36,849 nucleotides of DNA, taken from the IMG/VR virus record IMGVR_UViG_2778261087_000007, one strand, 5' to 3'. The position numbers were made by a program, and so were the translations under genes. The notes under the pieces are model-generated. The model saw only the letters and a list, made by a program, of their open reading frames with translations. It searched no databases and was not told the origin of the DNA. The DNA is from a virus. Taxonomy: Duplodnaviria; Heunggongvirae; Uroviricota; Caudoviricetes. The first letter of the stretch is position 1. Each line of letters starts with the position of its first letter. Shown here piece after piece: positions 1,294 to 36,849 of the stretch.

Positions 1294-1313
1294 TACCCAA
1301 TTTTTCTGAATCT

Positions 1314-1336
1314 AAAAAGCGCCTGCGGGCGCTTTA
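1314..1336 (+). terminator. putative intrinsic terminator downstream of serS
   Basis: A-run, GC stem gcgcc/ggcgc with 4-nt loop, then TTT, about 25 nt after the serS stop. Confidence 0.45.
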
Positions 1337-1478
1337 AGAAGAAGTTTAACAATTTGAAAATAAATGGATTTTATTTTTAAGTGTCCATATAACGTCCATC
1401 TTTGAATGCAAAAAGCTCACAGTTCCTATGCTGTGGGCTTTGTTTTTGGTATCTTCATGAATGAGAGTACCAAAAAGA

Positions 1479-1515
1479 AAACCCGCAGTTTTACGCTGCG
1501 GGTTTCTGCTTTTGG
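1479..1515 (+). terminator. hairpin with T-rich tail (terminator-like)
   Basis: 8-bp stem acccgcag/ctgcgggt, loop ttttacg, followed by tttctgctttt; A-run upstream so could act in both directions. Confidence 0.4.
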
Positions 1516-1956
1516 ATGTCTATAGGGTGCCTTATCGACCTTAACCCTGGCAACCGATTGACGGGGAATTTGACTTCCCCGTCGCGGTTCCTTACTGTGT
1601 AGACTTACACTGTAAGAATGCCGCAATTTCCGTGCCTGCAAACCTGAATCGCAACTCACAAGGTGATGTGTGGAGGATCCAGATTATCGCTACTGTGGTT
1701 AAACACAGCAGCAAGGTTTTTAACGGAATTTGCGTCATAGCGCTTGCTCCTTTGCTGGAGAGGCGCTAACCTTCTACTTGCGAAGGTAAGAAGTGTTAGG
1801 GCCTCGGTTAAACAGAAAATGTTTTCCGGGGCCTTTCCACATCCGGCCTTCGGGCTTACCCTCCGACCATCAGCCGAAAGGCACCCGCAGCGATTCTAGC
1901 CTGATCATCTCTTCTGTTTCAATTGAATAACCTTATCCAGTTGAACCTTTTCTGCC

Positions 1957-2162
1957 GATCTTTATGATGCGATCGTCGCCCTGTTGTGATCCTTTTTTCA
2001 GTTTTATTTTACCCGTTAATTTTGCGCAGGCCGCGCCGTGTCTGTCTTCTTTGTCTGATGGTTGTTTGATGCGATCCCTTCGTGATCGTTTTTCGTCTCA
2101 CGTAAAGTATGAAAACTCTTTTAATATCATGCGGTTTTATTGCTCCAGCCATTTGTGCGATC
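1957..2162. promoter_or_regulatory. GATC-dense repeat block (6 GATC in about 200 bp; recurring T-rich ..TGCGATC.. motif)
   Basis: GATC at 1957, 1971, 1988, 2073, 2084, 2159; motif t(g/t)tgcgatc occurs three times; non-coding region. Confidence 0.3.
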
Positions 2163-2474
2163 GAAAAAATATCTCTTAAAATTGCAAAAAATTTCAAAGT
2201 GTGAAATTTCAGAACTTCGCTTTTCCCCCAGTTACTGCGCTGGCTGGCGGTCATTTTTGCACGACAGAAAACTGAAAAAGCGTTTCAACACAAAACCCGC
2301 GGGTTGGAGGGGGTAGCGCGGTTTACGTGACGTGACACTTTACGTCATGTCTGGCTGGTTATGCGCAAAATTGCCGCCTCAGTGAGGCGCTGTCGTAATG
2401 ATTTGATGAAAGGAGGGGTAACGCATGGGCATGGCTCATGCGTTATGTAACGCGTGTTTTACGTGGGATTTATG

Positions 2475-4214
2475 TCAGGCGATAAGGTCGCGGTATTTTT
2501 CCCGCAGGGAGGATGACTGTCTGGCATCACCGGTAAATTCACCACTGTTGGTGGGTGTGCCTGTGCCAGGATGTGCGTGTGTGGCAGCATGTGTTGCCAG
2601 TTGTTCAATGAGATCCAGAATATCAACGAACAACGTCATCAGGTTCAGGCTGTCGCCACCCTGTGAACCATTTCGGCCTATAAACAGGGTCGGCGCAGAG
2701 AGGGAAAGACCACCACTGGCGGTGGTGGTCTGTGTACCGCTGATGTTCTCTGTGATATTCCCGCTTACTGTGCTGTTAACATTACCGCCGATGGTTTCCT
2801 GCCTGTCAGCACTGATGCGGCGTATCTCTGCCTGTAATTCCGCAATAAGGCTGTTTGCTTTCATCCTGATATCACCGGTGGCCACAATACCGTAATCACC
2901 ATCAGAACCATGGACGATCTGCCCTGCCATCAGTGAACTCGTCCCGAGTACCGTGGTACTGTCTGTGGCCTGTACGGTTGTTGTGCGGGTTGTCGTCCGG
3001 CGGCTTTCCTGGTCGCTGGTTATGATTCTGTGTGCAGATTCTTCCCTGATTTTCTGGTCCGTTTCCCGGTGCCATGTGCCGTCACGGGTAACCCTCTGAA
3101 ATACTTCTGCACGCTGTTGCTGTAGCTGCTCGCCAGGCTGGATATCAGGAAGATTCAGTCCGGATGGGAGTATCTGCCTTATTACCGGTTTATCTGGCCG
3201 TCCTTCGATATGCGCGATTTCCACTATCGTTCCGGCTTCCGGATAAGAAAAACAACCGGCCTCATTTCCGGCCATGGGTACCGGAAGCGGCACGGCAGGA
3301 TATACAGGCGTGTTGTTGCTATCGTTGCCGTTTTCGTCCAGTAACTGCAGGTCAACAGCATAACGTGGGCGAAAACTGTCTGCCACATCGCCAAGCGTCG
3401 TGGATTCTGTTGGCGAGATAACGCGGGCCAGTCTTGGGCGTAATGTTCCGTCAGCCAGCTCCGGAAACTGCGATTCTGTCTGACGGCGCAGAGGTGAGCT
3501 GGATACGACAGAACCATCCTGGCGAAACCTGTCCCATGTCAGTGTCATGGTTTCATTATGAATGGCCACACGCGTGATCCGTCCTGCAGGAAGGTTAACG
3601 CCGGGGCGCAGAGTCTCTATCAACATGATATCCATACTGTTGCCGGCGCTGTGCCCCAGTGCATATTCATCAGGAATTTCCGGGATGGTCAGCGATGCAA
3701 AGCGTGAGTCACTGGCGCTGCCAACGAATACAGAACCATCCGGCATGGGATGCCAGACGTAATCCTGAATGCTGAATATCCTGCCAAGATGATCAAGCAG
3801 GCGGGTACCGCTTCCGCTGTGAGTGACGCAGGGTACTGGTGTGGATACATAGGCAGATGACGCGGTAATAAACACGATACCGCTCTTTTTTCCGAGATCA
3901 TCAAGAACATCACGCAGAGTCGGGTGCTGGATGACACACGGAAAACTGAAATCCAGTACCGCGGCAGCTTCCCTGATGAACAGACGGCGGGCGCCGTTTT
4001 CTGCCGGTTGATCGCGCTCAACGTAACCTGAGAAATAACGCCAGGCTTGGCCATCACGCCCAAAATCAATCTGAATCATGGCACCGGCCAGCGTGCTGCG
4101 CTGATTCGGCAGGGTGACAAAACCTCTTCCTGATGCGTTCAGTGACAGGACCAGACTGATGTCTGTTATTTCTGTCTGTTTACCGTTGACCATGCATCTC
4201 TGAATAATTTTCAT
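2475..4214 (-). CDS. baseplate hub / central spike-like protein (possible gpD-gpV type fusion)
   Basis: 579 aa; C-terminus LATHAATHAHPGTGTPTNSG resembles the His-rich apex of P2 gpV (..HTHKHPGDSGGTTG..); last gene of the tail operon; N-terminal similarity to hub proteins is only a pattern-level impression. Confidence 0.5.
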   Translation of the reverse strand: MKIIQRCMVNGKQTEITDISLVLSLNASGRGFVTLPNQRSTLAGAMIQIDFGRDGQAWRYFSGYVERDQPAENGARRLFIREAAAVLDFSFPCVIQHPTLRDVLDDLGKKSGIVFITASSAYVSTPVPCVTHSGSGTRLLDHLGRIFSIQDYVWHPMPDGSVFVGSASDSRFASLTIPEIPDEYALGHSAGNSMDIMLIETLRPGVNLPAGRITRVAIHNETMTLTWDRFRQDGSVVSSSPLRRQTESQFPELADGTLRPRLARVISPTESTTLGDVADSFRPRYAVDLQLLDENGNDSNNTPVYPAVPLPVPMAGNEAGCFSYPEAGTIVEIAHIEGRPDKPVIRQILPSGLNLPDIQPGEQLQQQRAEVFQRVTRDGTWHRETDQKIREESAHRIITSDQESRRTTTRTTTVQATDSTTVLGTSSLMAGQIVHGSDGDYGIVATGDIRMKANSLIAELQAEIRRISADRQETIGGNVNSTVSGNITENISGTQTTTASGGLSLSAPTLFIGRNGSQGGDSLNLMTLFVDILDLIEQLATHAATHAHPGTGTPTNSGEFTGDARQSSSLREKYRDLIA

Positions 4215-6059: not shown

Positions 6060-6660
6060 CACCCTCTGGCCAGCCAACAGGATACGCACGAATATCCGGC
6101 AGTGCGGTCAGCCCTGCCACTTCTTCTTTCATCCGGCGCTGGCGTTCGTGGATTTTAAACCCCTGCATCACCATTGCCGCATTCATCGCAGTATCCAGTT
6201 GTATCAGCTCTTCCGGCGTCAGAGTGACATCCTGATTATCCGCATCCGTCCAGAAAAAATGCTCCGGCAACAGCCCGTTTCCTGCCACCGCAACAACAGG
6301 TGTCAGTCTGGACTGTGACGCCTTTCCGGCATCCCAGCGATGACCACTGAATTCAAAAACAAAACTGCTGTTCTCCTGGCTGTCACGCCAGCGACTGATT
6401 TCACCGTATTTCTGATTTCTGGCCTTTTCCAGTATCTCCTCTGTCACCACAAACGGCGTGACTCCACCCCAGGCCCCTGATATCAGTCCTGACCAGAGCC
6501 TTAACCCGAATTCTGTCGGGTCTGAAGCTCTGGCAGTATAAGGTACATATACCCGATGACTGTCATCAGAACGGTCTGCCATGAACACCTCACAGGTAAT
6601 GCTGCCATCTTCATTAAAACGGGCATTGCGGACGTCCGCTTCTGAATTCCTGGTATCCAT
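6049..6660 (-). CDS. tail fibre assembly chaperone (second copy)
   Basis: 203 aa immediately after tail fibre 2; C-terminal region typical of Tfa chaperones. Confidence 0.7.
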   Translation of the reverse strand: MDTRNSEADVRNARFNEDGSITCEVFMADRSDDSHRVYVPYTARASDPTEFGLRLWSGLISGAWGGVTPFVVTEEILEKARNQKYGEISRWRDSQENSSFVFEFSGHRWDAGKASQSRLTPVVAVAGNGLLPEHFFWTDADNQDVTLTPEELIQLDTAMNAAMVMQGFKIHERQRRMKEEVAGLTALPDIRAYPVGWPEGDDE

Positions 6661-8228
6661 TATTTCACCCTCAGAAAAAGCATTTTCTCTTCAGCTTCTG
6701 CATTTCCGCAGGCCATCCAGATTCCTGACTGTACCGGGTCAAGCCGCTCTCCGGCCAGTTCATCTCCGTAACTGACCGCATCCTGAGAAGCACAGAACAG
6801 GTAACTCCCCACTCCACCGGCTACCGGACGACCGGCGAACTGCCACCATGGAGTGGTACCCAGTCCGCTGTAAGCCCTGATGAATGCCTGTCCCATACAG
6901 TTAAGGAAAATCTGACCTGAAACATTCTCATTCGTCGGCACCTGCCACATCAGACCATATGCATAATTCCCCGCGGCACCCGGAACGGGGTGGTCTTCAC
7001 AGGCAAGGTAGTGGTTATATTTCAGCAACGGGAACTGAAGGTCAGAATACATAAAACCATGAGCCAGAATGCCCGTGAATTTTTTCGCAGTCTTTATCCC
7101 GTCTTCCGGGTAAACTCCGCTGGGCCCCATGGGTCCCTGAGGCCCCTGAGGGCCGGTGGCTCCCCGGGCACCGGTATCACCTTTATCGCCTTTCTCACCT
7201 TTTTCTCCCTGAGGCCCGGTATCGCCCCGGTCCCCTTTCTCTCCCTTTTCACCACGGGGGCCCTGTGGGCCGGTCTCCCCCTGCGGTCCCGGCTCTCCCT
7301 GTGGTCCTGGCGTTTTAGCAATCTCCCTGGCCTCCTCCAGTGCCTTCAGCGCCCCCTGCTCATGTTCACCTGCTGTCGTGGCACTGTCTGTTGCCTGGTT
7401 CGCTGACTGGCGTGTTTGTTCCACGGCCTCCTGATATGAGCATGTGGTTATCCTCAAATCTTCCCATACACCGCTTTCTGTTCTGTGAGCTAACGGTGCA
7501 ATATGACTGTGTTCATCGCATTCCGGAATGCTTTCGGCCAGGATCAGGCGATATCGGGTGACGGGGTACCCCAGGACTGTGAAACCATCCACCCATGCCC
7601 GGATACAAAGATAATCAGCACCTTCAGCAATAATGAGGGTTTCATCTTCAGTCTTTACCCTGAAGCCGGCAATATAGGCGGTGCCACCGGTACAGGTCAT
7701 CACATCATCCTTAACGGTGATGCGTCCACAGTCATTAATAAAAACGTGATGTCCGTAAAAATCGTGCAGTGTTTCGGCTCTTGTACTGGCTTCAGCTTTC
7801 AGCCATGAAGTGATATCCAGTTGCCAGCTCTGAGGGGGAACAGTAATATTCGCAGCCCTGGCCATTCCCTTATAAGCCAGGACAAAATTGCGTATTAATG
7901 TTTCGCCCTCCAGTTTTTGCCTTACCGGGGTGGTGATAATACCGCACAGTGTTCTGCCTGGCTGATGTACAAGACAAATACGGTTATATGTAAACTCCCT
8001 GACATCATGACCAATTGTCACGCTGCAGATAATGGCATCCTGATTGAGACGGCTGTATGTCAGCTCTGTGGCAGCAAATGTTATCTGTGAGTCTTCCGGA
8101 TAACTATCCGTCAGCATTGACTCGTTGTCTGATAAAGTAAAAAGAATGGCATCCGGTCTTGCCGGAATATTATCTGCAACGCAGTCAGCCATCCATTTTT
8201 CAAATGATTTGGTCAGCAGGGTGCTCAT
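6660..8228 (-). CDS. tail fibre protein 2 with collagen-like Gly-X-Y tract
   Basis: 522 aa; N-terminal 200 aa homologous to tail fibre 1 ([12 protein letters not shown]...PARPD vs MSTVITRQYEHW...PARPD); about 21 uninterrupted G-X-Y triplets. Confidence 0.8.
7116..7310 (-). repeat. collagen-like G-X-Y coding repeat inside tail fibre 2
   Basis: Residues about 307-371: [64 protein letters not shown]. Confidence 0.85.
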
Positions 8229-8247
8229 TTTTGATTATCTCCGGTTT

Positions 8248-8775
8248 TTATTTTGTTTCCGGTACAGCAGGCCAGTTAATTGCCTCAAAGTTATCCTTAT
8301 TATCAATGTCTGAAATATTCAGAGAATTAAGCTCACGGATATACATCATCCACTGAGTGAGTTTAAGCCTGTCATCGTCACTGATTATTCCAAGACTGAG
8401 CTCTGTCTGCCAGTCACTGGTAATACTCCTGGCTTCTGACAGTAACCTGTTGCGTTGTGTTTCAGCCTGTTGCCGGTAATCAACAGGAACCGGTAATATC
8501 TCACCATCCCTGTAATACCAGCGAGCCTCAATACAGAACCCTTCAGGAAGTTCGTCAACCTCCACAATGGAGAAACCTGCCGGATAGAGACGTGAAGCAT
8601 CCTCCGCCATGGAGTAAATCACTCCGGTGTCCGGATGAATGCACAATTTATATTTCTTCGTGAATTTATTGACAGAATCATAAAAATCCTGACCATCCTC
8701 ACTGCAGAAATACTGGATACCATCACCATAAGGCATGTCTTCAGGGTAATAGCGTGAAACGTTTCGGAGTTCCAT
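8248..8775 (-). CDS. tail fibre assembly chaperone (first copy)
   Basis: Start at MELRNVSRYY (ATG 8775, SD-like AAGGGA upstream); directly downstream of tail fibre 1. Confidence 0.7.
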   Translation of the reverse strand: MELRNVSRYYPEDMPYGDGIQYFCSEDGQDFYDSVNKFTKKYKLCIHPDTGVIYSMAEDASRLYPAGFSIVEVDELPEGFCIEARWYYRDGEILPVPVDYRQQAETQRNRLLSEARSITSDWQTELSLGIISDDDRLKLTQWMMYIRELNSLNISDIDNKDNFEAINWPAVPETK

Positions 8776-8786
8776 AATGTTGTCCC

Positions 8787-10340
8787 TTAACCGGATATGG
8801 TGCGCCATGCACCATTAATATAAATCTGTTTTGCTTTGTAATAGACACCGCCAATATTATCTGCAGAATGTGAGCCAGTTTCCTGAACGTTAATACCAGA
8901 AAGCACACAACCTGCCGGGGCACGGAATGTCCAGGAAATTTCATTACCACCTGGATTGTGAAAGGTTTCGTTTGTGTACTGTTCGTTCTGTACATAGCGG
9001 GCATCAGCTGCAGCCTGCGTCATTCCCGCTGAAATGGTGATATCCTTCGTACCATCAAATGCAACACCATTTATTTTTCGTGCGTTCTGTAATTTTGTGG
9101 CGCTGCCGGCATTACCGGTTGTGTTCTGGTTGCCCTGGGTATTCACACCCGGGAGACTGATATCTCCTGAACCATCAAAACTGACGCCGCCGATTTTCCT
9201 GCTGGTTTTTAATTTTGTAGCCGTACCTGAATTGCCTGATATATCGGTGATTGTAATATCTTCCGACAGTTCCTTACCGTTGACTTTCCTTGTTGACGGA
9301 ACGCGACGTTTTGCCTCATCCATAGCGTTCTTTACGGCTTTGGGAGTGGCGGCACGATCTTCCCTGTCACTGTCTGTATCACTGCAATATTGCGCAAATC
9401 CCTTTTCGTCCAGCGTGGCGTCAGGGTGATTGCGTGAGCGCACGTGGGCTGCCAGTGCATCGCTGTTTTCTTCATCAGGTGTCTGTGGACGGACATCCTC
9501 AACATGACCGGCAGATAATACTGCCAGTGGTGCAACATAATGTCTGAATCCGTTATTATCGGTGTACTCTTCAGTTACCAGGCGTGTATTCGTATTCCCG
9601 GCGTCTGGTTGTCTGGCAGTAAATACAAATACCGTTTTCCAGCAGCCTGATACATGTCCCTGCCAACTGGCATCAATCAGAATGATGTCATTTTCAGAGG
9701 CGGTAAGTGTGAAGGGCTCCGTTAACTGAACACGCAGGCCACCGATATAAGCCACACCGGCACTGATGGTAGCTGTGCTGTTAATGGCATCGTAACTGAC
9801 ATGCAGGCTGTTACCCAGACATGCGGCATCACCATAGTAATCAAAGGCCAGCAGACGACGCGATTCATCCATTCCTGTCAGTCTGGCAGTAAAATCAATC
9901 TGCCAGACGTCAGCGGTGACGTTTACCTGCATGGCTTCGGCTGCCCCTTCGAATTCCATGGCGAATGTGCGAATCAGGTTATTGCCCTGAATGCCATTGG
10001 CGGTCCTGATTTTCTGCTGTAGTGGTGTATGGGCAATCATACACAGTACATGGCTTTCTTCGTGATACAGCCCAATCCAGTTATATTCAAAATCACCTGC
10101 GGTGGTGTCCAGAATCACGGAAAATGCAACCGTATCAGGTTCAAGCATGCCGAACTGTGTTACCGGAACGCGGCAGACAATATATTTTTCATCCGGCAGT
10201 TCTTCATCCACCGATATCGGTGCACTGATATCCATATCCGGAATGCAGGCAAAGATAAAAGTGTCCGGTCTGGCCGGTTCGTTGCTGATAAGCTGGTTTG
10301 CACACCAGTGCTCATATTGTCGCGTAATTACCGTGCTCAT
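8787..10340 (-). CDS. tail fibre protein 1 (P2 gpH-like)
   Basis: 517 aa; contains HPDATLDEKGF...AATPKAVKNAMDEA matching the P2 gpH motif RHPDASLTAKGF...AATPKAVK; two ATKL..R.I.GV.FDG fibre repeats. Confidence 0.85.
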   Translation of the reverse strand: MSTVITRQYEHWCANQLISNEPARPDTFIFACIPDMDISAPISVDEELPDEKYIVCRVPVTQFGMLEPDTVAFSVILDTTAGDFEYNWIGLYHEESHVLCMIAHTPLQQKIRTANGIQGNNLIRTFAMEFEGAAEAMQVNVTADVWQIDFTARLTGMDESRRLLAFDYYGDAACLGNSLHVSYDAINSTATISAGVAYIGGLRVQLTEPFTLTASENDIILIDASWQGHVSGCWKTVFVFTARQPDAGNTNTRLVTEEYTDNNGFRHYVAPLAVLSAGHVEDVRPQTPDEENSDALAAHVRSRNHPDATLDEKGFAQYCSDTDSDREDRAATPKAVKNAMDEAKRRVPSTRKVNGKELSEDITITDISGNSGTATKLKTSRKIGGVSFDGSGDISLPGVNTQGNQNTTGNAGSATKLQNARKINGVAFDGTKDITISAGMTQAAADARYVQNEQYTNETFHNPGGNEISWTFRAPAGCVLSGINVQETGSHSADNIGGVYYKAKQIYINGAWRTISG

Positions 10341-29583: not shown

Positions 29584-29997
29584 TCACTCCCCGGCAGTTG
29601 CCCGTTGAAATGCGGCACGGTACAGCACAAGAAGGCGCCGGTATTCGTCAATAAAGCCTTCTGCCGTTTTAATCCCTTTCACTGCCACGCTGTGGGTTGT
29701 CATGTCCAGTACGAGCGCCATTTCTGACGATGACCAACTGATTACGCTGTGGTCGTGCCCGTTGATGTGGAACAGGCCCAGATTCAGGCTGTGATTCAGG
29801 TCTCTGACGTCAACACGGTAACGGTCATCAACGGTGAAGGAGAAATCACCTGATGTGGTGATACTGCTGGCTGCCTGTTTACAGGCGCGGCGGTAATAGT
29901 CATGCCAGTCATTGAGGCGGGAGGCGAGGTGTGGATCCACCGACCACATCCAGTTAAAAAAATCCTGAATATCTGAAAGTTCCTTAACGTTCTTCAT
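29584..29997 (-). CDS. hypothetical protein upstream of replication gene
   Basis: 137-aa ORF whose stop overlaps the replication gene start region. Confidence 0.5.
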   Translation of the reverse strand: MKNVKELSDIQDFFNWMWSVDPHLASRLNDWHDYYRRACKQAASSITTSGDFSFTVDDRYRVDVRDLNHSLNLGLFHINGHDHSVISWSSSEMALVLDMTTHSVAVKGIKTAEGFIDEYRRLLVLYRAAFQRATAGE

Positions 29998-30065
29998 GTG
30001 AACCTCCGGTAACAGACGTGCGGAAGCCTCCCGCGTACGGGTGCGGGATGGCTTCAGGATGTTGT

Positions 30066-30293
30066 TTAGTGGTGGTGTTGCTGGTTGATAAGGTTCTGCA
30101 GTTCCGCGAGATCATCCGCCAGGTAGCTGAAAACAGCGGCACAGTAACGGTTTGACAGGGCGTGAGTGCGCTCATGCAGCATATTGATGTGCATGATTTG
30201 CGCGACGCGTGATGCGCGGAAAAGTCTGCGGTTGATTTCGGTGCGGATGTGAAGGCGCTCAGCGCGGGCGCGCTGTTGTTTGCGGTTTGCCAT
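30066..30293 (-). CDS. small basic hypothetical protein
   Basis: 75 aa, Arg/Lys-rich N-terminus, ATG with GAGG about 9 nt upstream. Confidence 0.45.
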   Translation of the reverse strand: MANRKQQRARAERLHIRTEINRRLFRASRVAQIMHINMLHERTHALSNRYCAAVFSYLADDLAELQNLINQQHHH

Positions 30294-30470
30294 GGTGTGG
30301 CCTCGTATGTAGTAAGTTTTAAAAACTCACCATCCAGAGCTGCGAAACTGTGGGTGGCGAGACGTACGAGGTTCGCAGTACCGGCTACATACGATCCCGG
30401 CCCGACCGAAGTCGGCCCCGTACGCCCCGCCATAATTCTGATGCGAAAAAGACGTGGCAATGCAGTACGC

Positions 30471-30493
30471 ACAAAAAAACCGCTGGCGCGGTT
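30471..30493 (-). terminator. intrinsic terminator downstream of dam
   Basis: On the minus strand: stem accgc/gcggt with 4-nt loop followed by 7 T. Confidence 0.6.
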
Positions 30494-30581
30494 GTGCGCG
30501 TATGTAGTCAGCAGGCTGCGAAACCCGGCACCCGTTTTATAAGGTGCAGCGGGAATGTAACCCGACTGATTACGGCATGGC

Positions 30582-30631
30582 AAGCGGTTTTTTTGTGTGT
30601 GCATGGCGATTACTCAGTCCGGTAGCAGTTC
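30582..30631. repeat. direct repeat copy A (50 bp) spanning the dam stop
   Basis: aagcggtttttttgtgtgtgcatggcgattactcagtccggtagcagttc; identical to copy B except T7 versus T5. Confidence 0.85.
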
Positions 30632-31629
30632 ACGGAGTACGGCATCAGCGGTTGTTCTGCGGTGGAAGAGGTAAACATCGCGCTGTAAGTTGTATCTCCC
30701 GTCACCGTGCCGCAGTCCGGACAGTAGCCGCCGCCATGGCGACCACAGGCGTCGCACTGTCTCAGGGTGGCGATAACCTCCGGTGCTGGTTTTCGGGTTT
30801 TTGCGCCAACGCTTCGCGGTGCCTGGATGCGGTTCATCCGGTAGCCCTGATAAATGCGCCGTGCTTCCGGTGTGTCGGAGCCGGAAATGGTTATGCTGGT
30901 CATTCCACCTGTTTCCTGTGAAAGACGGTCAAGCGCTGCTCTCAGGCGAACGTGTTCGTCCTTCGTGAAGGGTTTTTCGTAGGCGGTGAAATTGTCCCAG
31001 CCACTGAATGACAGGTAAGGGGGATCGCAGTACACGCAAAGCGTACTACCTATGCTGAACAGGTGACTGGCAGTGTTCAGCGTTTTCTGAAAATCGCCAT
31101 GAACAAGCAGTGTTCTGGTGCTGTTTGCCTTGTCTGCAAATGCGCGGATTTCCCGTTCAGGGAAGTAGGGAGCCCGGTAGCCACCGAATGGGACATTAAA
31201 ATCCCCTTTTTCATTCACCCGGTACAGGCCATTAAAGCAGTGCCGGTTGAGGTATAAAAACATGGCGGCCAGCCGTAATTCGCGACGGTCGCTTATTCCC
31301 GTGCTCAGGAATGCATGATTCTCTGCATTAAAGGTGTTACGGATAGCGAGATAGTCAGTCCTGTTATTGTGTTCCAGGAACAGGTCTTTTGCTTCGTTGA
31401 TCAGACAGTCAGTGTTGTCCCGTGCTGCCCGACAGAAATTAATCAGTGCACCATTGGAATCACCCAGGATGTATCGGCTGTAACTGGTGTTCATGAATAC
31501 CGATGCGCCACCCACGAACGGCTCAACCAGGCAGTCCGCTTCTGGCAGATGCGCCTTCAGTGTGTTCATGATGCGGCTTTTCCCGCCCACCCATTTCAGC
31601 GGTGTGCCGGATAACAGTTCTTTGCTCAT
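30610..31629 (-). CDS. dam: DNA adenine methyltransferase (Dam family) with Cys-rich C-terminal extension
   Basis: 339 aa; N-terminal PLKWVGGK, FVGGASVF and catalytic DPPY motifs; C-terminal CDACGRHGGGYCPDCG zinc-ribbon-like segment; good SD AAGAGG. Confidence 0.85.
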   Translation of the reverse strand: MSKELLSGTPLKWVGGKSRIMNTLKAHLPEADCLVEPFVGGASVFMNTSYSRYILGDSNGALINFCRAARDNTDCLINEAKDLFLEHNNRTDYLAIRNTFNAENHAFLSTGISDRRELRLAAMFLYLNRHCFNGLYRVNEKGDFNVPFGGYRAPYFPEREIRAFADKANSTRTLLVHGDFQKTLNTASHLFSIGSTLCVYCDPPYLSFSGWDNFTAYEKPFTKDEHVRLRAALDRLSQETGGMTSITISGSDTPEARRIYQGYRMNRIQAPRSVGAKTRKPAPEVIATLRQCDACGRHGGGYCPDCGTVTGDTTYSAMFTSSTAEQPLMPYSVNCYRTE

Positions 31630-34803: not shown

Positions 34804-35331
34804 TTATGATAAATCGCTCTCGTGTTCCCTGCGTTTTTCCAGTTTTGAGCTTCTACCCATATAAACCCGTTTTCCGTTAACGGTTTGGCAGTCTTCTTTG
34901 TCTGCTGGAGAGAACTTTCTTTTCTGGCGGTCATACGTCCAGTAGCTTTTCCAGTTGTGCCATTCTGGTGGTTCGCACTCTGGTAGTTCGTCGGCCAACT
35001 TGTCCCACTCTTTGGCGTTAAACCACCATACGCCGTCTGAATCTTCATCTTCCGGGTTTGTACGTGTTTTATGCCCTGGCATTTGTCCACGTGCCACGGC
35101 AGTACGTAGTGCCAGTTTTGTTAACCCGACATATGCAGCACCTTTTTCCAGCGAGCAAAGTCCGGCGATTGGTCCATCTAGTCGAAGTGTTGCTCCTCTT
35201 TTGTAAGTGCGACGAGGTTTACTTTCCTGGTGTTCGCCATCGTTGGCGGCGTTAATGGAGTCGCTTGGTGCGTCACTTTCTTGAAGTGGCGGGAGGTCAG
35301 ATAACTCTTTATCGGCAATGATGTTCCGCAT
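34804..35331 (-). CDS. Cox-like excisionase / switch regulator with N-terminal extension, uncertain
   Basis: 175 aa divergent from the C repressor; segment VGLTKLALRTAVARGQMP...GVWWFNAKEW resembles the P2 Cox HTH region; ATG preceded by AAGAGGA. Confidence 0.45.
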   Translation of the reverse strand: MRNIIADKELSDLPPLQESDAPSDSINAANDGEHQESKPRRTYKRGATLRLDGPIAGLCSLEKGAAYVGLTKLALRTAVARGQMPGHKTRTNPEDEDSDGVWWFNAKEWDKLADELPECEPPEWHNWKSYWTYDRQKRKFSPADKEDCQTVNGKRVYMGRSSKLEKRREHESDLS

Positions 35332-35445
35332 TTGTTATCCTCTTGCGTTGGTGCGCTTATCGCGCCTTGTTATGGTTTGTTTTGGTTTGTTTTGGTTTGT
35401 AAAGATAATCGTACGGTTATCTTTGTGCGAGAGGTTAATACTCAA
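35332..35445. promoter_or_regulatory. immunity switch region (divergent promoters and operators)
   Basis: Three tandem tggtttgttt units (35373-35402) and near-perfect palindrome GATAATCGTACGGTTATC (35404-35421) between the divergent cox-like and C genes. Confidence 0.55.
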
Positions 35446-35787: not shown

Positions 35788-35856
35788 CGCTACACATTGA
35801 GCGAATTGCATTTCGCAAGGAGTGCCTGATTAATTTATCCGTTGGAGGGGCTAATC

Positions 35857-36849
35857 ATGTCGATTAAGCAACTCAAAGACGGACGTTATAAGGTTGATGT
35901 AAGACCACAGGGTGCTGAGGGTAAGCGGATTCGAAAAACCTTCACCCTGAAATCGAAGGCCCAGGAGTTTGAGAGGTATGTTTTACAGAATTTTCATGAC
36001 AAGCCGTGGCAGGCAAAACCAGCTGATCAGCGGCGGTTATCTGAACTGATAGAGGACTGGTGGATGCTTGACGGACGTAATCAGCCTTACGGAGATTCCT
36101 ACAGGGTCAGGCTGGAAAAGGTGATACGTGAAATGGGAGATCCACGCGCCAGCCAGATGACGCGAAAATTTATGCTTGAATATCGGTCAGAGAAATTACA
36201 GGCCGGATTAATGCCGTCCAGCATTAATCGTGACTTGTGCGTTTTGTCAACGATGTTCTCAGTATTGATTGAGACGGAGGTTTTTCACAACGCGAACCCT
36301 GTACGCGGTATACGCAAACTGAAAGTTCAGAACACAGAAATGGCCTTTCTTTCTGATGATGAGATTGATCGGCTTCTTGAGCGACTCGAAGGTGATGCGC
36401 GTCGTGTCGCCATTCTGTGTCTTTCTACGGGAGCTCGGTGGGGTGAGGCGGCGGAATTACGCGGGGAGCATATCGTCGGTAATCGCGTGACGTTCTTCAA
36501 CACCAAGAACGGGAAGTCTCGTTCGGTTCCGGTGTCTGATGCTGTGCTCTCGCTGATTAAAACCCGCCGAACCGGGCCGCTGTACGATGTCGATTATCTC
36601 CGGTTTCGCGAGATCCTCCAGGAGGTGAAGCCTGATTTGCCAAAAGGACAGGCTACTCATGTGATGCGTCATACGTTCGCCACGCATTTCATGATGAACG
36701 GGGGAAACATCGTTACCCTGCAACGGATTCTGGGACATGCCACTATTCAGCAAACGATGACTTATGCGCATTTTTCACCGGACTTTTTACAGGACGCAAT
36801 CAACTTTAATCCGCTGGCTGAAAGTGTCCATAAACTGTCCATCGATTAG
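35857..36849 (+). CDS. int: tyrosine integrase (P2 family)
   Basis: 330 aa from ATG at 35857 preceded by GGAGGGG; arm-binding N-terminus MSIKQLKDGRYKVDVRPQG..GKRIRKTF and C-terminal HVMRHTFATH...LGHATIQQTMTYAH catalytic region; stop is the last codon of the window. Confidence 0.9.
   Translation: MSIKQLKDGRYKVDVRPQGAEGKRIRKTFTLKSKAQEFERYVLQNFHDKPWQAKPADQRRLSELIEDWWMLDGRNQPYGDSYRVRLEKVIREMGDPRASQMTRKFMLEYRSEKLQAGLMPSSINRDLCVLSTMFSVLIETEVFHNANPVRGIRKLKVQNTEMAFLSDDEIDRLLERLEGDARRVAILCLSTGARWGEAAELRGEHIVGNRVTFFNTKNGKSRSVPVSDAVLSLIKTRRTGPLYDVDYLRFREILQEVKPDLPKGQATHVMRHTFATHFMMNGGNIVTLQRILGHATIQQTMTYAHFSPDFLQDAINFNPLAESVHKLSID

Follow-up and report, generated by a model that had tools for sequence, protein, structure and literature searches.

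Between serS and the last late gene of the adjoining prophage lies the interval 1294-2474 of the window, the whole 36,849-nt stretch of DNA that was analysed. From the serS side it holds the attachment-site core and the first arm of attP, two terminators, a minus-strand hok gene with its predicted regulatory elements, and a conserved region of ~390 bp that adjoins the 3′ untranslated end of the late operon (Table 1). This last region is the largest component of the interval and was unforeseen by the first-pass annotation, which had described non-coding junction DNA ahead of a prophage starting at 2474. Phage DNA instead runs from 1336, with only 1294-1335 matching prophage-free strains, and the Hok/Gef gene is intact. 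Other parts of that description hold up. Neither a tRNA nor a tmRNA is found in the whole window, the two terminator-like hairpins are present (1412-1441 and 1479-1505, each followed by a T run), and the GATC-dense block, with 7 sites in 260 bp, is the densest cluster of the window.

Table 1 Features of the serS-proximal prophage end, with the partner arm-type site at the opposite end
Feature	Position	Strand	Basis
Host DNA, serS 3′ flank through its intrinsic terminator	1294-1335	+	97.6-100% identity in 5424 of 5426 complete E. coli genomes
att core, attL copy: 20-bp serS terminator palindrome AAAGCGCCTGCGGGCGCTTT	1316-1335	.	Single copy in window
attP P′ arm, AT-rich, inverted repeat 1354-1364/1370-1380	1336-1405	.	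First phage-specific bases past the junction
Candidate integrase arm-type site GTGTCCATATAACGTCCATC	1381-1400	+	Two GTCCAT hexamers, 11-bp phasing
Bidirectional intrinsic terminator	1412-1451	.	Plus: 12-pair stem, then GTTTTTGG; minus: weaker hairpin
Bidirectional intrinsic terminator, also 3′ end of minus-strand hok mRNA	1478-1515	.	11-pair stems and T runs on both strands
hok mRNA, predicted full length	~1886-1478	-	Promoter position, Rfam match, consensus fold
3′ fold-back element, fbi-like, AAGGCACCC	1525-1533	-	Pairs with 1878-1886
hok 3′-UTR hairpin	1560-1583	-	Conserved
hok toxin CDS, 48 aa (MTQIPLKTLLLCLTTVAIIWILHTSPCELRFRFAGTEIAAFLQCKSTQ)	1592-1738	-	Pfam HOK_GEF PF01848, 33.4 bits (cut-off 22)
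Sok-like antisense unit, predicted	1744-1850	+	Promoter candidate TTGCTC-17-TAACCT (1744-1772), RNA ~70 nt (~1779-1850), GC-rich end hairpin
Leader ORF, 22 codons, mok-like position	1774-1842	-	Ends 36 nt ahead of hok ATG
5′-end element, tac-like, GGGUGCCUU	1878-1886	-	Pairs with 1525-1533
hok promoter candidate TTGAAA-18-TAGAAT	1922-1893	-	10 of 12 consensus matches; puts transcript start near 1886
Extended cos (DNA packaging) region, conserved, non-coding, most probable reading	~1957-2350	.	Homology to phage genome ends, position
Conserved GATC (Dam site) cluster	1957-2162	.	Sites 1957, 1971, 1988, 2073, 2084, 2159
Perfect 12-nt inverted repeat TTTTTCAGTTTT (1994-2005)/AAAACTGAAAAA (2268-2279)	1994-2279	.	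Brackets the cos-left region
cosN candidate	2299-2316	.	GGGTTGGAGGGGGTAG (2301-2316), predicted cohesive-end sequence, unique in window
Two direct TTTACGTSA repeats, late-gene side of cosN	2322-2347	+	Candidate terminase-binding sites
3′ untranslated end of late (tail) operon, hairpins 2375-2389 and 2419-2445	2351-2474	-	Differs from most relatives
Last late gene, 579-aa baseplate protein, HP1 orf35 homologue	2475-4214	-	PHROG 2258 'baseplate protein', E 6e-213
Candidate partner arm-type site GTGTCCATAAACTGTCCATC, inside int 3′ end (P arm)	36824-36843	+	

Attachment at the serS terminator

Comparison with prophage-free E. coli restricts the host match to the first 42 bp of the interval. In REL606 the match ends at 1335, where the empty site goes on with TTTTGTCTCCC and the window has AAGAAGAAG. 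The serS terminator palindrome at this border is present once in the empty site of REL606 and at both attL and attR of a sister prophage integrated at serS in A36, and the flanking sequence diverges directly outside it; the attR copy is thus known from the sister prophage and not from the genome of the present one. No obvious att core had been noticed before. The core is this 20-bp palindrome; the window ends with the int stop codon (36849), short of the attR copy, and so gives by itself no means of recognising it. At that other prophage end, int (35842-36849) encodes a tyrosine recombinase (Pfam Int_N 98.6 bits, Phage_integrase 70.2 bits), which would have recombined the phage copy of the palindrome with the host copy, placing the attL core at 1316-1335 and phage DNA from 1336. 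After integration serS keeps its terminator hairpin, with the T tract cut from 7 Ts to 3.

The AT-rich arm that follows is conserved in A36 and in AR_0055, and may contribute to bending or IHF binding at attP. In AR_0055 the prophage at this site is a different, P2-like one, making the serS terminator an integration site for at least two different P2-family lineages. Within the arm, the pattern GTCCAT-N5-GTCCAT occupies 1383-1399. It has two matches in 36.8 kb, against 0.19 expected, and because the only other copy (36826-36842, same orientation) falls in the 3′ end of int, the two pairs are probably arm-type integrase sites on both sides of attP; in the circular phage they would flank the att core. 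GTCCAC pairs adjoin the attachment sites of ESSI-2, SW5 and the CP131 prophage, and lie on both sides in ESSI-2 and SW5. Temperate phages that insert at palindromic gene ends and bring a restoring copy, such as HP1 and phiO18P at tRNA-Leu-like sites, likewise have as core a palindromic RNA structure at the 3′ end of a gene, restored by the phage copy; their int genes adjoin an attP with arm repeats on both sides, as the candidate repeats would be placed here. Unlike in these HP1-type phages, the core here belongs to no tRNA gene and is the intrinsic terminator of the protein-coding gene serS.

These comparisons bear on an alternative in which the interval would be either intergenic sequence of the host or what is left of a degraded gene, its hairpins being present by chance. 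Two mechanical ORFs of 71 and 81 aa in 1964-2254 might be taken for such a remnant, but they have no Pfam match, and 24 of 26 relatives have broken versions of them; the hok gene is conserved and intact, and hairpins are about 8-fold more frequent than expected (11 terminator-like sites in 1250-2550, against 1.4 in shuffled sequences). The comparison with the empty site, which matches 42 bp only, already refutes this explanation and leaves it practically no probability: beyond those bases the interval is not colinear with the serS-dmsA intergenic region, and it is therefore phage DNA and not host DNA. The two terminators next to the arm are both strong and would probably shield the prophage from serS read-through; that at 1412-1451 is conserved in A36, and that at 1478-1515 is kept in 12 of 16 hok loci.

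A hok/sok-type cassette beside attP

Homologues of the hok gene carry Hok/Gef or MokW-like annotation in E. coli prophages (RefSeq, sister prophages included) and in phage P88. The transcript start derived from the promoter candidate coincides with the start of a match to the Rfam sok/hok-leader model RF01794 (1886-1733; 43.7 bits, E 3e-8), which scores under the gathering score of 59; at gathering thresholds, Rfam gives no match in the interval. Matches to Thr-leader, trpB, SR1 and miRNA models at relaxed thresholds were set aside as terminator look-alikes, and the sok/hok leader is the sole meaningful match.

In the consensus fold computed from 16 homologues, the 5′ end of the mRNA is closed onto its 3′ region. 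The helix resembling the tac/fbi pairing joins 1878-1886 to 1525-1533 without a mismatch over its 9 bases, and 13-16 of the 16 homologues retain it, with almost no covariation. The palindrome that the first-pass annotation had picked out near 1570 (GACGGGGAA/TTCCCCGTC at 1560-1568 and 1575-1583) forms the 3′-UTR hairpin; one of its pairs changes in a compensatory way, from GC to AU, in 5 of the 16 sequences. The sole ORF upstream of hok is the 22-codon leader, whose ATG is invariant in the 16 homologues and which may couple to hok; a mok frame overlapping hok is absent. On the plus strand we predict a Sok-like antisense RNA. Both hexamers of its promoter candidate lie in invariant columns across the 16 loci, and 1776-1856 folds at -38.9 kcal/mol (z = -5.7); a generic promoter scan gave no match for this candidate.

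The locus, with its minus-strand mRNA and predicted antisense RNA, is read as a complete type I toxin-antitoxin locus of the hok/sok type. The leftward transcript (~1886 to 1478) would pair its 5′ end with the 3′ element and so hold translation silent, and the cassette, as accessory cargo, would stabilise the prophage by post-segregational killing if it acts as other members of the family do. An earlier suggestion that the interval holds a degraded gene, an sRNA or the attachment junction thus fares unevenly: the junction is there (1335/1336, core 1316-1335), the sRNA is a predicted antisense RNA, and the gene is intact and not degraded.

The hok/sok system of plasmid R1 and the chromosomal and prophage hok loci of E. 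coli, with the MokW-like loci of P88 and other Xuanwuvirus phages, have in common with this locus the Hok/Gef domain, a long structured mRNA with pairing between its 5′ and 3′ ends, a leader ORF upstream of hok, and a Shine-Dalgarno sequence sequestered in a hairpin. In R1, the antisense promoter overlaps the hok ribosome-binding region, and the candidate promoter of the antisense RNA predicted here would have the same position. In contrast to R1, where mok overlaps hok, the leader ORF here stops 36 nt before it. At the sequence level, the hok locus is 91% identical to the copy carried by the satellite-like elements described below, and only ~78% identical to the P88 copy and to the copies in other prophages.

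The stretch between attP and the conserved block appears to be a cargo slot. In relatives it is filled by hok/sok, by genes for a YafO toxin, a nuclease or an acetyltransferase, or by com paired with a methyltransferase gene.

A probable cos region behind the late genes

The block 1957-2350 occurs in 51 E. coli genomes, with ~85-90% identity and no annotated feature among the matches listed. In all four loci inspected, which represent three insertion sites and differ in neighbouring cargo, it immediately follows the 3′ end of the last late gene. Relatives were found by an exact DNA pattern taken from the core of the block, which recurs exactly in 22 IMG/VR loci; a search of genome and viral contigs with the 579-aa protein found no relatives, exact 8-mer peptides not being in common. 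The two mechanical ORFs within the block were ruled out as small genes, given their lack of a family match and their disruption in relatives.

Homology links the block to the genome ends of ESSI-2, SW5, phiO18P and HP1. Positions 2301-2316 align column by column with the annotated 16-nt cohesive end of phiO18P, the 15-nt terminal repeat of ESSI-2, the record break of SW5 and cosL of HP1; identity around cos is low for HP1 and phiO18P, so that the alignment rests on short common boxes, and the record ends of ESSI-2 and SW5 may reflect genome assembly. The boxes are TTTxCGTG repeats and a flanking AACTGAAAAA box. TTTACGTSA has 4 matches in the window, against 0.52 expected, and 3 of them are in the cos region; most relatives have three copies. 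Besides the two direct repeats there are an inverted copy (2098-2106) and a TTTACGT copy (2458-2464). HP1, phiO18P and SW5 have TTYCCGTG/TTTACGTG repeats at the matching place. AACTGAAAAA is also found left of cos in HP1, ESSI-2 and the satellite-like elements. Within the perfect 12-nt inverted repeat is a further dyad, AAATTTCA-N5-TGAAATTT, at 2189-2209.

The gene context is that of HP1-type phages, in which cos separates the orf35-like gene, the last of the late genes, from attP/int (PMC2771037). The 579-aa protein is 34% identical to HP1 orf35 and 35% identical to its phiO18P counterpart over the full length, and its gene is preceded by one of the HP1_ORF34 family. The order orf33-like gene, HP1_ORF34-family gene, orf35-like gene, non-coding block, attP and int is that of both HP1 and phiO18P. 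In HP1, cosL occupies 1-9, attP 251-694 and int 698-1711, and orf35 ends 192 bp from the right end; in phiO18P, the annotated 16-nt cohesive ends lie 200 bp beyond the orf35 homologue. A position after orf33/34/35-like baseplate genes and before attP/int is likewise found for the cos sites of HP1 and HP2 (Haemophilus), phiO18P (Aeromonas), ESSI-2 (Cronobacter), and SW5 and SI7 (Salmonella). These sites also resemble the present one in a purine-rich cohesive end of ~16 nt followed by CGCGG-TT(T/C)(A/C)CGTG repeats, and in a AACTGAAAAA or TTTTGCAAAA box ~25-35 bp to the attP side. Like HP1-type phages, the prophage has terminase genes of the P2 type (gpP, gpM).

Set against these likenesses, the prophage has no DNA-level match to any sequenced phage, and its orf35 homologue is just 34-48% identical to those of HP1-type phages; searches of phage records with 1880-2474 and with the tail region gave no DNA match beyond hok. 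A further difference is the ~0.6 kb of cargo, hok/sok with its terminators, inserted between cos and attP. The interval had been thought long for a phage end, and its length is normal for HP1-type relatives, where cos and accessory genes separate the last tail gene from attP.

From its homology and position, the block 1957-2350 is most probably the cos packaging site. Terminase would bind the repeats around cosN and make a staggered nick at ~2301-2316, yielding the cohesive ends of the virion. The assignment is weakened because no physical DNA ends have been observed for the phage or its close relatives, and no sequenced isolate matches the block as DNA. The lengths of the IMG/VR loci proved unusable as a guide to physical contig ends. 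A P2-style cos downstream of the portal gene was rejected: there is no second copy of the motifs, and ogr follows the portal gene.

Taken as a whole, the interval probably forms the left end of a prophage of the P2 family (Peduoviridae), integrated and HP1-like in layout, comprising attL at the serS terminator, a hok/sok-type cassette and a cos site, each of which is a known kind of element. The exact prophage boundaries and three functional elements can thereby be named in a stretch that RefSeq leaves mostly unannotated. A cos site becomes predictable for a widespread E. coli prophage lineage that has no sequenced isolate, which helps to delimit prophages, to predict phage termini and to recognise satellites that hijack this lineage.

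Two small elements (L017 and L030) are of this last kind in appearance. They carry a primase, an int and an Ogr/Delta gene together with the same cos core and flanking motifs, and no structural genes were recognised among the proteins scanned. The P2/P4 helper-satellite pair similarly has one cos site in common, as the phage lineage and L017/L030 do here. In contrast to P2/P4, the helper would be HP1-type in layout, the satellite gene order is unlike that of P4, and the helper dependence is putative.

A conserved GATC cluster in the attP-proximal half of the probable cos region

Seven GATC sites (1903, 1957, 1971, 1988, 2073, 2084 and 2159) fall within 260 bp, compared with one per 341 bp window-wide, and 0.9% of random placements are equally dense. 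Of 25 phage-type relatives, 23-25 keep each of the six between 1957 and 2159, compared with a mean 4-mer identity of 62% in the block. Among the phages the cluster is under selection. None of its sites is kept in L017 and L030, the satellite-like elements, which have versions such as GAAG, GATT and GAAC in their place. Because they retain the cos motifs without any GATC, the cos model leaves the cluster unexplained. GATC is also far denser here, with 6-7 conserved sites, than in HP1-type phages, which have 2-4 per 300 bp: enrichment beside cos is only mild in HP1, phiO18P, SW5 and ESSI-2, where it ranks in the top 2-16% of 300-bp windows, and the strong cluster is for this reason specific to the present E. 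coli lineage. The prophage encodes a D12 (Dam-class) methyltransferase (30610-31629).

Dam sites of this density could instead mark the block 1957-2350 as a methylation-sensitive transcriptional control region for the adjacent accessory genes, with no packaging role, as at the right end of Mu, where Dam and OxyR control the mom promoter. Besides the seven clustered sites, six of them conserved, and the D12 methyltransferase gene, promoter-like hexamers at 2197-2168 (minus strand) and 1941-1968 (plus strand) would fit such a function, as would the cargo next to the block in STEC313, which includes a Com-family regulator and a DNA methyltransferase. However, the block does not change with its neighbour, be it hok, YafO with a nuclease, an acetyltransferase or com/MTase, and hok is served by a promoter of its own that lies outside the conserved sequence. 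In addition, the most conserved part (2170-2350) both matches, in alignment, the cohesive ends annotated for related phages and is retained in satellite-like elements that have lost all GATCs. We consider a control region improbable.

A replication origin comparable to oriC or P1 oriR, with iteron-like TTTACGTSA repeats, an AT-rich stretch and the GATC cluster, is more improbable still. The repeats, the cluster, the A/T-rich tracts and the dyads are what such an origin might contain, but for replication the prophage encodes an endonuclease of the P2 gpA type (Pfam Phage_GPA, 356 bits), and in P2 the origin nicked by gpA sits inside the A gene. The block is, moreover, homologous to phage genome termini, and the satellites, which have their own primase, keep the cos-like motifs only.

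If the block is a cos site, its GATC cluster invites comparison with the pac site of P1, where Sternberg and Coulby reportedly found in 1990 that cleavage needs Dam methylation of clustered TGATCA/G hexamers. P1 likewise has a conserved GATC cluster within its packaging-site region, and the phage here encodes its own Dam-class methyltransferase. By contrast with P1, this is a cos phage and not a headful one, and the GATC contexts (CCGATCT, GCGATCG, GTGATCC, GCGATCC, GTGATCG, GCGATCG) are of the form YGYGATC(C/G), the repeated TGATCA/G hexamers of the P1 pac type being absent among them; the satellites, too, have the same cos without GATC sites. Literature searches for P2- or HP1-like phages whose cos is under Dam or GATC control found nothing relevant. 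By analogy with P1, the cluster might act as a methylation-sensing switch, in which the Dam status set by host Dam or by the phage D12 enzyme, or else SeqA, would gate the use of cos by terminase. We regard such a switch as unlikely, if somewhat less so than a control region or an origin. It would bear on the question of why 6-7 Dam sites are strictly kept beside cos in the phages and not in the satellites. Were it correct, the switch would be a cos-phage counterpart of Dam control at P1 pac, and the GATC-free satellites could escape the gate and be packaged preferentially.

Layout of the interval and its attachment site

A P2-family prophage fills the window between serS and the tyrosine integrase gene, int. 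Its genes include a gpP-type large terminase, portal, GPO scaffold, P2-type capsid and gpM small terminase, together with a gpA replication endonuclease, Ogr/Delta, Cox and an HTH repressor. The first-pass annotation described the 1.2-kb interval between serS and the first prophage gene (1294–2474) as non-coding and lacking an obvious att core; both statements are contradicted, the first by a Hok/Gef ORF and the second by a core in the serS terminator palindrome. It also reported no tRNA, and indeed neither tRNA nor tmRNA was found across the entire window, while its terminator-like hairpins lie at 1412–1441 and 1479–1505, both with T runs, in a region with 11 terminator-like sites (1.4 expected). 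All components of the interval belong to known kinds: host DNA (42 bp, closing with the att core), then the attP P′ arm, two terminators, an intact hok/sok-type cassette, most probably the cos region, and finally the late operon's 3′ end. HP1-type Peduoviridae share this arrangement, but the window prophage carries cargo inserted between cos and attP.

Features of the prophage ends and selected genes
Feature	Position	Strand	Remarks
serS	1–1293	plus	first gene of the window
Candidate arm-type site GTCCAT-N5-GTCCAT	1383–1399		47 bp right of core
hok mRNA terminator	1506–1478	minus	
hok ORF	1592–1738	minus	48-aa Hok/Gef protein; Pfam 33.4 bits, cut-off 22
Sok promoter candidate TTGCTC-17-TAACCT	1744–1772	plus	invariant columns
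22-codon leader ORF	1774–1842		ends just before hairpin sequestering hok Shine-Dalgarno sequence
hok promoter-like TTGAAA-18-TAGAAT	1922..1893	minus	puts transcript start at ~1886
D12-class (Dam-family) N6-adenine DNA methyltransferase	30610–31629	minus	Pfam 173.8 bits
Cox-like gene	34804–35331	minus	
int	35842–36849		window ends exactly at its stop codon
Candidate arm-type site GTCCAT-N5-GTCCAT	36826–36842		within int 3′ end; same orientation as 1383–1399 copy

Of the interval, bases 1294–1335 (the first 42) are the only ones universal among 5,426 complete E. coli genomes. The junction of prophage-free REL606 reads ...AAAAAGCGCCTGCGGGCGCTTT|TTTTGTCTCCC... and runs on to dmsA, and that of the window reads ...GCGCTTT|AAGAAGAAG.... 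A sister prophage in E. coli strain A36 occupies the identical site, with 84% identity over the interval. Because its right end reads int stop, ~90 bp, AAAGCGCCTGCGGGCGCTTT and then TTTTGTCTCCC, sequence comparison identifies the 20-bp serS terminator palindrome (1316–1335) as the crossover core. A36 has two copies of the core, one each at attL and attR. Since the window runs no further than the int stop codon, it contains only the attL copy, which made the core invisible to the earlier reader. The serS terminator at attL keeps its stem and only three of seven Ts; this shortened version may be backed up by the pair of strong bidirectional terminators that come next. A 28-nt imperfect inverted repeat (1431–1488, 79% complementary) bridges the gap between these terminators and may merely mirror their A and T tracts.

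The motif GTCCAT-N5-GTCCAT occurs twice in the window (0.19 expected), and in the circular phage both copies would flank attP, like arm-type integrase sites. In the HP1-type phages ESSI-2 (Cronobacter) and SW5 (Salmonella), GTCCAC pairs flank the attP region on either side, and a GTCCAC pair adjoins the junction of the CP131 prophage. In E. coli AR_0055 (locus L043, 9000–10800), a different, P88-like P2-family prophage with ogr, a gpD-like gene, sheath and tube occupies the serS terminator and has the attL arm and hok in common with the window, so the int–attP–hok module is common to different lineages.

The hok/sok-type cassette

The Rfam sok/hok-leader model matches 1886–1733 (E 3e-8, below the gathering score), beginning exactly at the predicted hok transcript start. 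Pairing of the mRNA ends is a hallmark of hok mRNAs; here the first nine bases, GGGUGCCUU, are perfectly complementary to 1533–1525, and 13–16 of 16 homologous loci retain this 5′–3′ closure in a consensus fold. The palindrome noted earlier near 1570 was recovered at 1560–1583 and is the conserved hok 3′-UTR hairpin. In R1, mok overlaps hok, whereas the leader ORF of the window does not. The 80 nt downstream of the Sok promoter candidate are predicted to fold stably (z = −5.7), and we infer that this plus-strand unit encodes a Sok-like antitoxin. The hok of the window is 91% identical to that of two satellite-like elements; copies in other prophages and phage P88 are ~78% identical to it.

In related E. 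coli prophages (L003 1400–4900, L004 2900–4700, L005 3370–4700), the region separating cos from the attL junction appears to act as a variable cargo slot: it contains hok by itself, hok together with a Com regulator and a DNA methyltransferase, hok and a serine acetyltransferase, or a YafO toxin and an ATP-dependent nuclease.

A predicted cos region and its GATC cluster

A block at 1957–2347 recurs in 51 E. coli genomes, with ~85–90% identity and no annotated features among the listed matches; no sequenced phage isolate among the phage records searched has it. In four related prophages inspected, inserted at serS, raiA and copA with differing neighbouring genes, the block lies directly downstream of the 565–579-aa last late gene, a homologue of HP1 orf35 (34% identity) that is preceded by a gene of the HP1_ORF34 family. 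HP1 (Haemophilus) shares this layout, in the order orf33-34-35, 192 bp, genome end (cosL 1–9), attP (251–694) and int. The Aeromonas phage phiO18P is laid out like HP1, with annotated 16-nt cohesive ends 200 bp past its orf35 homologue, and ESSI-2 is colinear with the window prophage, its record closing in a 15-nt terminal repeat. When the junctions are aligned, GGGTTGGAGGGGGTAG of the window (2301–2316) falls on GGCGGGAGCGGATGAG of phiO18P, GCGGGTGCGGTGTAG of ESSI-2, GGGGAAGGA of HP1 and the SW5 record break. The flanks match as well: past the aligned ends the window continues with CGCGGTTTACGTG and phiO18P with CGCGGATTCCGTG, and the junctions have TTTxCGTG repeats on the late-gene side and a AACTGAAAAA or TTTTGCAAAA box on the attP side. 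Two mechanical ORFs within the block are broken in 24 of 26 relatives, the cos motif occurs once in the window, and 22 IMG/VR loci match the cos core exactly; together with the cos core and boxes of the satellite-like elements, this supports a DNA-level function. The conserved block is therefore predicted, with good confidence, to be the phage cos site.

The GATC-dense block reported earlier was verified: seven sites fall in 1903–2162, compared with a window average of one per 341 bp. No cluster in the window is denser, and 0.9% of random placements equal it. Sites at 1957, 1971, 1988, 2073, 2084 and 2159 are each kept in 23–25 of 25 phage-type relatives, against a mean 4-mer identity of 62% in the block, and a site at 2212, present in most relatives, is lost in the window. 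On the attP side of cos, GATC enrichment over 300 bp is only mild in HP1, phiO18P, SW5 and ESSI-2 (2–4 sites, 0.7–1.4 expected). The window prophage and ESSI-2 encode D12 methyltransferases, SW5 an annotated Dam-family enzyme, and HP1 and phiO18P DNA methyltransferases of unstated class; the annotation of the A36 sister prophage lists none. Use of cos might respond to Dam or SeqA, in analogy with P1 pac, although this is improbable. Less likely still are a control region like that of the Mu mom promoter and a replication origin. The conserved Dam-site cluster and the cos-sharing satellites are the two points deserving follow-up.

Satellite-like elements and other prophage features

Among the 22 loci are two small satellite-like elements, L030 5015–11300 (IMGVR_UViG_2740892423_000020), which adjoins host hpt, and L017 (IMGVR_UViG_2541047882_000002). 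They encode an 895-aa Toprim primase, an integrase resembling that of the window, an Ogr/Delta zinc-finger gene and hok; the proteins scanned included no recognised structural gene product. Both have lost all GATC sites, including the six conserved ones, yet retain the cos core and all flanking boxes, as a satellite dependent on its helper would have to. These elements look like satellites of the HP1-layout phage lineage of the window.

On the minus strand at 6660–10340, consecutive tail-fibre genes (517 and 522 aa) have N-terminal families in common; a tail-fibre assembly gene (8248–8808) comes after the first and a 203-aa tail-fibre-family ORF after the second, with no invertase gene noticed between the two. 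At 30350–30547 (minus strand), C4 antisense RNA (79.8 bits) and IsrK (62.8 bits) matches, both above Rfam gathering scores, overlap an Ash-family ORF (29984–30604); together they form an antisense immunity module of the P1/P7 type within a P2-family prophage. Three tandem copies of GGTTTGTTTT (35364–35398) occupy the divergent region between the Cox-like and HTH repressor genes, likely an operator or switch region.
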